Part shown: piece after piece, positions 41,501 to 44,500 of the stretch | How positions within the stretch are numbered: the first letter of the stretch is position 1 | Layout of the letters: each line of letters begins with the position of its first letter | Source: Convolutriloba macropyga | Taxonomy: Eukaryota | Assembly (NCBI RefSeq): GCF_964194025.1 | Contig: NC_134480.1 | Span: 16,182,001 to 16,246,000 of the forward strand | Length of the DNA: 64,000 nucleotides | Direction of reading: 5' to 3' | Notes under the pieces: generated by a model | The model's database searches: none | The model's input: only the letters and a program-made list of their open reading frames with translations | Told to the model about the DNA's origin: nothing | Position numbers and translations under genes: made by a program

Positions 41501-44500
41501 CGAAAAGTCCAATTCCAGCGACTGCGGCTGCAATTGCAAGCGGGGCGGCTCGTTTTTGTCGATTGTGAGGGTCTTCTTCGACTCTGGTAAGGAATTTTTC
41601 AGTCTCGTTGCGTAATTTAAGGACTTCAATTTCGGCTTCTATGGTTTCATTGAGTATTTTTGTGTAAAGCCAATCAACATTGAAGGCTGCTGTTTGGTTC
41701 CGGTAAGTAGTGCTATGGGTAAGGTTGCAAAATTCCGATTGCGTGATCCACTTTTTCGAGAGTTCATTAAGTAGAGTCTCTACTTGTTGTCTGATAGTGA
41801 AATTATAGCGAGGAAACGGTACTAAAAATTCCACATTTATGAACTTTTCGGTAATCAGAATCTTTCCTTCTTTATGGAAGATGATGCCTTTATCCAGAGC
41901 TGCTTCTGTATTAATCGGGGTTTCAAAAGTGGGGCCGAAAAGTAAGAGATTCAACACAATTGTGAGTAACATTTTCAGATTTCAATAATATCGACTATGT
42001 TTCAGGACAATCTTCTACTGATGTGGCTCTTCTGAGTGTTTCAACTGGCTCTATTTGGTCTTCCGGTGTTTATTTGCTCATTTAGTTACTTTATTCGGGC
42101 TTCTAGATCTAGTTTTCTCAATATGGCACTTGTTTATGTGATGTTTGTTTATTTCAGGTGTACTCTACTTTTAGGTGATGTGTGCTGATGTGTGTATTTA
42201 TTGATATTACTACTGAATATGGTGTTTAAACATGTTGAAGTGTGGTTATTTGGTTGAATGATGGGTGTGTGATGTTGGGGATAGTGGTTGGGGGGGTCGA
42301 ATTATGCAGTCTTTACATGTTTTTTCGAGTTTTTCAGATTATTTGTTGTCAATATGTGCTTTAATATTACTGTCGGCCCGAATAATATCACTCTGGGGTG
42401 CTGCGGCAACGGGACCAGGTATGTATCAAGGAACTGGGTTCACTGGTCTCGTTTGCGGCACCCAGGATGTAATATCAATAATAGTACAGCAGTAGTTAAT
42501 AGCTTAGAAGATGGAGGAGATGGCTGGGACTGGGACGTAATATTATTATTAGTATTCATATTATTATTCTTATTATTCGGGATTGTTGGGATGTGGAGAA
42601 GGAGAAGGAGAGGAAGATGCGTGGGAAGAAGGAGGGAGAGGGAAGAGAGTGAAGATCAGGAAGATGAGGGAGGAGTTGAGATGGAGGAGACGACAGTTTA
42701 ACTTTATTTATAATTATTTATTTAACTTATTAACTGACTTTTAGTTGCATATGTTTAGTTGTAGTTTGGCATAGTTTGTCTTAATATACTGACTAATATA
42801 CTTGGTGCTACTAATATTTAATAAGCTGCTATTAATATCATGGTAATTAGTATATATCAAAGCTTGTTTTTGTAGGGAGAATTGAGGATATAAGTAGGGG
42901 TTAAAAGGAAGGATTAGAGAGGCGTAGTGAATAAGTGAATGCTAGTGAAAGGTGTAATTGTGTGTTCAGAGCGTTGTTGTGTGTTTTGTGGCATGTGTTA
43001 TTAACTATTAGTGGTCATTATAGCATGGTATTTAAATGTCCTTGGCATTTATTGCGTAATTTGTTCTGTTTGCGTGTTTTCATTCATGTGATTGTTCATT
43101 TTTGACATAACACTTTAGTTTTCTGCTCGCTTAATAACTAGTTTGACTCAGTTTTGAAACTTTCAGATAGTTATTGTGAATCATGGTTGTTTCCCAGTAT
43201 GAGGATTTTCTGACTTTCTTGCGAAGCAAGTCGTTGTCTCAGTCTGAATGGATGTATCCATCATTTGTTCGATCATCTGAGGAGCGACGAGCTTATCGGG
43301 ACAAAGCAGAACATATGGTACTGGGGACAAAGAACGTGGGAACATCAGAATTGGCCGTACATCGGGAGGTGTTGATGTACAAAGTGGAAGTGAAGGTGGG
43401 CAGCGAGATGCAAGTTCAGGAGAAGGAAATTCCAACTCAGCAGATGGTGTCTCAGGAGTTGGCTTCGCTTCATGTCGGGTTTAGTGCTTCTGCAAAGCAC
43501 ATTACTCGTGTGAGGTCACAAGTCGATCGCCTGAAAGCTGCTGGGTTCTTCTTTCCACGGTCGATGGGGGGATTGCAGGCCGCTGTTGAGAGGTAATTGC
43601 ATATATTTATAATATTCACTGATATTTTTATTTGTTTTTCTTTAGTTTGTTACATGTATTATTAATTGTGGAGTGGTGTATGCTTATTATTTAGAGCTAT
43701 TCGTGAGTGTGTGCCATGTTTCGTGAAGAAGATGCACGGCAAAGAGGTGCATTGCACTTTCCGTGCAAATTTGCGTGCAAATGTGTGTGCCGAATTGGGG
43801 TACGAGTTTTACAATGACATTTATGCTGAGCATGTGGACATAGTGTCATTTAAAACTCCAAAGTTGCTTGGTGCGGCTGGTGTGAGGGCCGAAGTTGGTG
43901 GTCTGTGTGCTCTCAGTGCTCTGTACTACACTTTAACTGGTCGGAAGTCAGGTATTTGTTGTGTTTTGTCGCAATTTTCACTAAGTTTTACTTTAATTCA
44001 CGTTTGATTGGTTTGTTGCAGACAAGAAGGTTCCCAAGCATAATGTTCGCGCTCTACGTTTGGCTATTGTGGCCAAGATGCGTTCGCCTGGGTTCTCTGA
44101 GCTTGTAAAGGACCAGTTAGGGTACTTTGTGTCGGAGTATGAGATTGCTGAGAGTGAAGATAATGGGTCGTTGGCCGAGTTCTGGGTAAAGTTTCTTTGA
44201 ATACTTGGTAATTCTAGTACGCGCATGTGTAGGTGGATACTTTTTAATGTTTTGATGTTTAGTTTGTCGGTATGGCTTATTTCCTCGGGTGCAACGTCAA
44301 CATTTATTGGCAGTATACTGAGGAAATGGGGGGCGGCTGGGTGTGTTACAGGCATTCAATCAATGCTAAAACCACCGCTCCTGCTGTACTGATCCAGTGC
44401 ATCGGGAAATTCATCGACAATGAGTATCGGTACCATTGTGAGCCAATCGTAGACTTTCCAAAGTGAGTATTTAACTGTTTTTGTGAATATTTATCGTGCT

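Follow-up and report, generated by a model that had tools for sequence, protein, structure and literature searches.

Accessory genes are regarded as a mark of complex vertebrate retroviruses. Extra open reading frames antisense to an LTR retrotransposon and downstream of its pol gene are known in plants and a fungus, their origin and function being described as unknown (PMC7264820, PMC11963269). In the plant Ty3/gypsy elements Grande, RIRE2 and Retand, such frames run antisense to gag-pol and lie downstream of pol; they are conserved and occur in most copies (PMC7264820, PMC11963269), and they show little similarity to other transposons, with an origin that is likewise unknown (PMC7264820). 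Bdelloid LTR elements provide a case in which animal elements have captured enzyme reading frames common to other mobile elements (PMC5408684). Zinc finger, OTU domain and introns are combined in one gene in the described Ginger1 family, whose transposases carry a YPYY motif, an H2C2 finger, a DDE core, a GPY/F motif, an OTU or Ulp1 protease and 0-4 introns; why transposons carry such proteases is a question raised in the same work (PMC2836005; Bao, Kapitonov, Jurka 2010). The Ginger1-derived Imagin, GIN1 and GIN2 have kept the zinc finger and lost catalysis, and amphipod Imagin has lost the whole core (PMC12863088).

The window analysed here, a 64,000-nucleotide stretch of Convolutriloba macropyga contig NC_134480.1, contains an 18.75-kb Ty3/gypsy retrotransposon on the minus strand (window 38228-56977). 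A predicted gene (43183-44661, plus strand) of five exons and 380 codons, with no internal stop, lies antisense to this element, between env and the end of the integrase. From its predicted zinc module and OTU domain, joined without a DDE core, we think it probable that this gene, found in at least 11 families, encodes an accessory deubiquitinase that would be steered to the element's DNA or integration complex. The features, with window coordinates, are as follows.

38228..39092, minus strand: 3' LTR of the host element, with TG..CA ends
39683..41981, minus strand: env-like gene, in two frames in the window copy (broken)
42285..42701, plus strand: second antisense open reading frame, small and Cys-rich (CCxNG), a predicted single-pass membrane protein
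43155..43182, plus strand: splice-acceptor-like site just before the ATG (AG at 43166-43167), in 17/23 rows, judged by eye
43183..43592, plus strand: exon 1, with a segment like the integrase N-terminal extension (Y25-P26), H97 and H106
43471-43473, plus strand: H97, His of the H2C2 module, in exon 1
43498-43500, plus strand: H106, His of the H2C2 module, in exon 1
43593..43694, plus strand: intron 1, 102 nt, GT-AG, phase 2
43695..43951, plus strand: exon 2, with C142-x2-C145, the pre-OTU segment and the predicted catalytic Cys208
43708-43719, plus strand: C142-x2-C145 (ECVPC), in exon 2
43906-43908, plus strand: Cys208, predicted OTU catalytic residue, in exon 2
44022..44185, plus strand: exon 3, helical part of the OTU domain
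44263..44462, plus strand: exon 4, OTU strands and HCEP motif
44434-44436, plus strand: His335 of HCEP, predicted catalytic residue, in exon 4
44550..44661, plus strand: exon 5, short low-complexity tail and stop
47810..54895, minus strand: gag, protease, RT-RNase H and integrase (H2C2 + rve)
56113..56977, minus strand: 5' LTR of the host element, followed by a primer-binding-like site starting TGG

The host element has a pair of 865-nt LTRs with six differences, a 5-bp target duplication (GTGTT) outside them, a gag-PR-RT-RH-IN order and an env-like third gene. Pfam identified protease, RT, RNase H, Integrase_H2C2 and rve, whereas the Baculo_F match of the env-like gene was weak (E 0.003, below cut-off); an RQKR motif and a hydrophobic peptide were recognised in the latter by eye. 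Both pol and env are interrupted in the window copy. In its gag-pol-env order, LTRs and F-like env (weak by Pfam here) the element resembles errantiviruses, the Ty3/gypsy elements with F-type env (PMC13524379), and the terms 'antisense', 'accessory' and 'OTU' have no occurrence in the main text of that survey of env-carrying gypsy elements. Because the host integrase is complete in domain content, the zinc module of the antisense gene would be a second, core-less one.

All four introns are GT-AG in the predicted splicing, and the splice sites are kept while the introns drift, which provides indirect support for the predicted antisense transcript. Intron 1 cuts the zinc finger between its His pair and the CxxC at a position common to the sister families, and intron positions and phases are common to the families compared. 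The span 43183..43720 given in an earlier note on this DNA covers exon 1 together with intron 1 and runs into the beginning of exon 2, and the residues quoted there are present, with QYEDFLTFL..MYPS..ERRAYRDKA..LMYK..LH(97)..KH(106) in exon 1 and ECVPC (C142, C145) in exon 2. The conserved acceptor before the ATG suggests a 5'-UTR intron. Sequencing runs X1-X4 span the introns, the joints listed for them include none at a predicted intron, and the runs are DNA-like. The persistence of introns inside a retroelement can be explained by the antisense arrangement, since introns antisense on the genomic RNA would not be spliced out before reverse transcription; the gene itself is likely transcribed from an internal promoter that points in the direction opposite to env. 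No intronless (processed) copy was apparent from the open-frame lengths of the genome matches. The longest stop-free match (291 aa) is a decayed copy in which intron 1 lacks a stop, and was rejected as an intronless gene.

Exon 1 has at least 150 matches in the genome (150 scored out of 184 candidates), and further families were recovered by searching the genome with exon 4 and with exons of sister families. The neighbourhood of the gene was compared at 87 loci, comprising 40 of the 150 exon-1 matches together with 17/150, 20/51 and 10/150 from the exon-4 and sister-family searches. On the opposite strand, env was present at 80 of these loci, pol at 52 and at least one of the two at 83, the remaining four showing neither at the threshold applied; beside the gene, env, pol or integrase core on the same strand was found at 0/87. 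The gene is present in at least 11 divergent families with 20-54% protein identity between representatives (3 of the 11 family rows borrow one exon from a sister copy). Its antisense layout is conserved across the families along with the gene itself, which makes it a fixed trait of the whole clade, shared by at least 11 families, an aspect absent from the earlier note.

Divergence of the gene tracks that of env (Spearman 0.78, Mantel p 0.0015, n 10) and of integrase (Spearman 0.58, p 0.005, n 11, one pair being without overlap). The deep split of the gene tree agrees with the integrase and env trees and is weakly supported in the gene tree, while the crown-group order differs from theirs (L112). 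The gene evolves several times faster than the integrase, with median end branches of 0.75 versus 0.14. Within the window's family, dN/dS was 0.19-0.34 against nine diverged copies and 0.14-0.19 against six young copies, with third codon positions holding 216/316 differences among the latter. Pairs in other families gave 0.23, 0.26, 0.36, 0.47, 0.68 and 0.84, one further pair being undefined and three saturated; those at 0.47, 0.68 and 0.84 are weakly constrained. Exons were more alike than introns in 4/4 pairs (exon/intron identity 0.84/0.70, 0.83/0.64, 0.82/0.78 and 0.80/0.61). Taken together, these substitution patterns show the predicted gene to be under purifying selection.

Introns within a retrotransposon are unusual, which would favour a recent nested insertion of a Ginger element, or a neutral passenger in one element. 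The earlier note had pointed to Ginger terminal inverted repeats and a target duplication as the marks of such a nested insertion. Across window 41982-47809, neither the 40-270 bp terminal inverted repeats of Ginger nor its 4-bp CCGG/CCGT duplication flanks the gene, and no inverted repeat of at least 12 nt or CCGG/CCGT+TGT...ACA pair was found flanking it. With site and orientation the same in at least 11 families, and under purifying selection, a recent insertion or passenger is extremely unlikely. The lack of Ginger repeats and duplication, together with the single place occupied in all families, instead marks the gene as an old, fixed part of the element.

The ligands of the N-terminal module are spaced H-x8-H-x35-C-x2-C, compared with H-x5..8-H-x28..29-C-x2-C in gypsy integrases (n=121), the His-to-Cys gap of the gene being about six residues longer. 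When compared by hhalign (E-values refer to one template) with a profile of the N-terminal regions of 121 gypsy integrases, the window's family on its own gave an in-register alignment whose score was not significant (15.2, versus 12.3±2.1 and a maximum of 17.9 for 100 shuffles). The score rose to 27-30 with four families and to 35.5/38.2 with 11 (P 80/84%, up to 101 columns), versus 12.3±2.3 (maximum 18.4) for 40 shuffles and 18.0 for the reversed control. As the single-family score lies within the range of its shuffles, the resemblance exceeds chance only with deep multi-family alignments. Both His and both Cys are in register in the 11-family alignment, the 101-column version of which also takes in helices upstream of the finger. 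The comparison with integrase H2C2 proposed in the earlier note was therefore positive for the gypsy N-terminal profile with 11 families and negative for Pfam Integrase_H2C2, which was matched by no single sequence (exons, intron read-through or 20 alignment members). The H2C2 part of its YPYY + H2C2 assignment is borne out by this profile match; the YPYY motif is degenerate, a literal YP/FP preceding the finger in only 2/11 families, whereas the position of the segment before the finger is homologous to that of the N-terminal extension of integrase, with which it aligns.

The fold was modelled on paralogue L155, whose intron 1 is without stops and which could therefore be modelled as a continuous chain (mean pLDDT 73, with values of 83-92 across most of residues 1-100). 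Against 48,161 chains, the top-ranked match was Ty3 integrase (7q5b_A, Z 5.4, rmsd 4.5, 102 aligned, chain 26-138), followed by foamy-virus integrase (4bac_A, Z 5.0, rmsd 4.7, 92 aligned, chain 8-108), with the MLV integrase N-terminus (3nnq_A) lower down at Z 3.9. These VIA Z values for L155 are modest (<8) and within 1 of those of winged-helix matches, which mostly cover only 50-75 residues. Foldseek gave nothing significant, integrases appearing only at E 1.4-5.2 and those named above at E 2.7-5.2. Such a lack of significance in Pfam, in Foldseek and in the single-family profile would be expected if the H, H, C, C pattern were a chance resemblance in an unrelated N-terminal domain. However, the 11-family profile lies about 10 SD above its shuffles with all four ligands in register, and the two highest-ranking fold matches are integrase N-termini, aligned over almost the entire domain; we consider chance very improbable. 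Profile and paralogue fold support homology of the predicted module to the integrase N-terminal extension and H2C2 finger.

A direct Pfam OTU match to the gene was not obtained. The OTU target profile was built from this genome's OTU loci, two of which were confirmed by Pfam OTU; we take these reference loci to be Helitron-like, from their motifs as judged by eye. Against it, the C-terminal part scored 20 in hhalign with one family (not significant), 64 with four and 96 with ten (P 98.4%, 164 columns; 13.5±2.8 for 30 shuffles). The OTU Cys is present in 11/11 family rows and HC[EN]P in 10/10 rows having exon 4; locus L117 has an exon 4 of its own without the His. In the predicted triad (C208, H335-C-E337), the Cys, the His and the acidic or amide residue that follows are kept across families, and the Asp found in the common D-G-x-C motif of OTU proteases is replaced in 11/11 rows. 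The profile comparisons show the predicted C-terminal part to be homologous to OTU cysteine proteases. The product is likely a ubiquitin-removing protease, and its role would most likely be that of an accessory isopeptidase.

The missing Asp could also mean that the OTU is a pseudo-enzyme, or an enzyme for another modifier, and that the protein is a nucleic-acid-binding regulator of element transcription or splicing. Winged-helix DNA-binding domains are near-tied among the fold matches, and plant antisense frames have been proposed as regulators (PMC7264820, PMC11963269). Conservation of the Cys, the His and the next acidic or amide residue across 20-54% identity, as in an active triad, argues against this reading, which we regard as improbable.

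The CxxC and the OTU Cys are encoded in the same exon, 56-64 residues apart in 11/11 family rows, a distance too short for a DDE core to fit. The linker between them matches the pre-OTU segment (score 26, P 79.9%, shuffles 7.4±1.4) that exon 2 has in common with Helitron-type OTU modules. The GPY/F motif is also missing from the gene product. The short spacing, along with the lack of a same-strand core at any of the 87 loci, confirms the absence of a catalytic core stated in the earlier note. Its proposal that an integrase-type N-terminal zinc module is fused to an OTU domain in a gene with introns is upheld by the profile matches to both modules. The resemblance to Helitron OTUs extends to the fold motifs and the pre-OTU cysteine segment (PMC2836005; loci L041-L056 and L124-L153 in this genome), but these OTUs lie within a long replication protein and lack fusion to an integrase zinc module.

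With respect to origin, the gene resembles Ginger1 in its integrase-type N-terminal motif and H2C2, its C-terminal OTU, its GT-AG introns and its domain order (PMC2836005; Bao, Kapitonov, Jurka 2010). It differs in lacking the DDE core, GPY/F, terminal inverted repeats and 4-bp CCGG/CCGT duplication, in being fixed inside LTR elements with YP mostly lost, and in its length of 380 aa versus ~500-800 aa. Ginger1 ancestry is plausible. We lean, at somewhat better than even odds, towards an origin from Ginger1 by one internal deletion, in which a captured Ginger1-like transposase would have lost DDE and GPY/F together; the capture likely happened once, before the families split. No Ginger-type locus, with an integrase core beside an OTU, was present among the OTU loci examined: 16 Pfam-OTU loci (by eye and tblastn) and 30 from a Helitron-type OTU query, in overlapping sets, had neither an integrase core nor H2C2 within 1.5 kb. 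The idea of a trimmed Ginger-like gene put forward in the earlier note thus agrees with the zinc module-OTU fusion, the introns and the lack of DDE, and is left without a Ginger parent among these loci.

The gene could instead be a chimera of a gypsy integrase N-terminus and a Helitron OTU that gained its introns later, with no part played by Ginger. Every transposon-type OTU that turned up in this genome appears Helitron-like by eye, as judged from its motifs; the linker matches the Helitron-like pre-OTU segment, and YP is missing in 9/11 families. Some gypsy integrases also have YPYY (PMC2836005). The Helitron match does not discriminate, because Ginger1 and Helitron OTUs are related (PMC2836005). 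A chimera would require two separate donors and the gain of four introns, whereas in Ginger1 both modules already occur in the same order and with introns, and the Ginger search was shallow, with 150 of 12,552 H2C2 candidates scored. On balance, a chimera appears rather unlikely. In the same genome, OTU-first open frames of up to ~2,500 aa, followed by Cys-rich conserved segments, were seen at L041-L047, L053 and L056, several of them clustered on C10, and probably represent a family of Helitron-like elements, a label given by eye.

Within intasomes, integrase contacts DNA through its N-terminal extension and integrase cores through its zinc domain. By such contacts, the zinc module of the antisense gene would direct the protease to the DNA of the element or to its integration complex, where the OTU would likely remove ubiquitin placed by the host on element proteins or on chromatin nearby, thereby helping replication. 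The earlier note had likewise suggested that the zinc module could dock the protease onto the element's own integrase or onto chromatin. Integrase N-terminal domains also touch the catalytic core of neighbouring subunits, and a core-less module kept under selection might therefore act as a decoy, binding the integrase of its own element so as to adjust or reduce integration as copy-number control, with the OTU secondary. Against a decoy, the gene diverges much faster than the integrase (20-54% identity; 0.75 versus 0.14), a poor fit with a fixed interface, and the window's family is high-copy; we find such a role doubtful. Fast divergence with a kept triad fits a role in host conflict better than a fixed structural one. 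We further suggest, tentatively and at somewhat less than even odds, that an invertebrate env-carrying Ty3/gypsy lineage independently evolved the organisation of complex retroviruses through a domesticated, core-excised transposase, the spliced antisense zinc-finger deubiquitinase and a membrane protein together countering ubiquitin-based restriction.

The candidate for this membrane protein is the product of the CCxNG frame at 42285-42701, which likely represents a second accessory gene, a related frame being present upstream of the antisense gene in 17/23 rows. In the window copy it has a basic and then an acidic tail, and in several families it has a signal-peptide-like start.

As an antisense accessory frame of LTR elements, the gene is of a known kind, being antisense, downstream of pol, present in most copies and under selection; its H2C2-OTU architecture was not found described. 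It differs from the plant frames in lying in an animal element with env and in having four introns within the coding sequence, an enzyme domain that can be recognised and a plausible origin from a transposon. Imagin, GIN1 and GIN2 are host-domesticated and without an OTU (0 occurrences in the text of PMC12863088), whereas the adopter here is a mobile element. The bdelloid captures are a GDSL esterase and a DEDDy nuclease, with OTU, intron and Ginger unmentioned in the text searched (PMC5408684). The portions of PMC6839031, PMC12440569 and PMC3383448 covered hold nothing on such a gene, and no description of an H2C2-OTU antisense gene in an LTR element was found in the literature outside Repbase and subscription journals.

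The gene would be a retrovirus-style accessory gene in an animal Ty3/gypsy clade and, if Ginger-derived, an instance in which one mobile element has domesticated the transposase of another. As a spliced antisense gene with two recognisable modules, it makes origin and function testable, and it offers a handle on why transposons carry OTU or Ulp1 proteases, the protease and zinc module having been kept here and the DNA-cutting core dropped. Such genes are missed because they are antisense, intron-split and invisible to Pfam.

Word-indexed protein searches returned no longer relatives of the gene, and HMMER over 1.84 billion representatives gave 8 matches, all close to the window's family. ESM Atlas gave no usable match, and PDB sequence searches gave only unrelated matches that were not significant; the best of these, Sca2 (E 2e-4), is a repeat-rich helical protein and was rejected. 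Metagenome and viral contig scans each gave one spurious locus, a bacterial kinase (L154) and a phage protein (L165), respectively. The finding of no relatives beyond this genome's family in protein, metagenome and viral contig searches is weak evidence of absence, as the gene is intron-split.

Several other features of the region were observed. A ~190-nt repeat occurs between the antisense gene and the integrase end in three diverged copies ~1.07 kb apart (45218-45411, 46288-46481 and 47353-47546). The tail of the host integrase (47810-48310, minus strand) has similar tails in 15/120 related proteins and many sister families; it is without a Pfam match, and we presume a resemblance to a macro domain. 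Tandem arrays of the env/antisense-gene segment (L025-L026, L032-L035, L102 and L164; e.g. with 5.5-kb spacing on C11) show local duplication of this region. Elsewhere in the window, fragments of other mobile elements were recognised by eye at 463-3051, 9571-13035 and 16836-22588; they comprise a second integrase of gypsy-like type, a copia-like element and an RT fragment that is LINE-like and duplicated. At 24041-28796 (minus strand) lie the exons of a gene resembling a host gene, with what we take, by eye, to be U-box, von Willebrand A and Hint-like parts.
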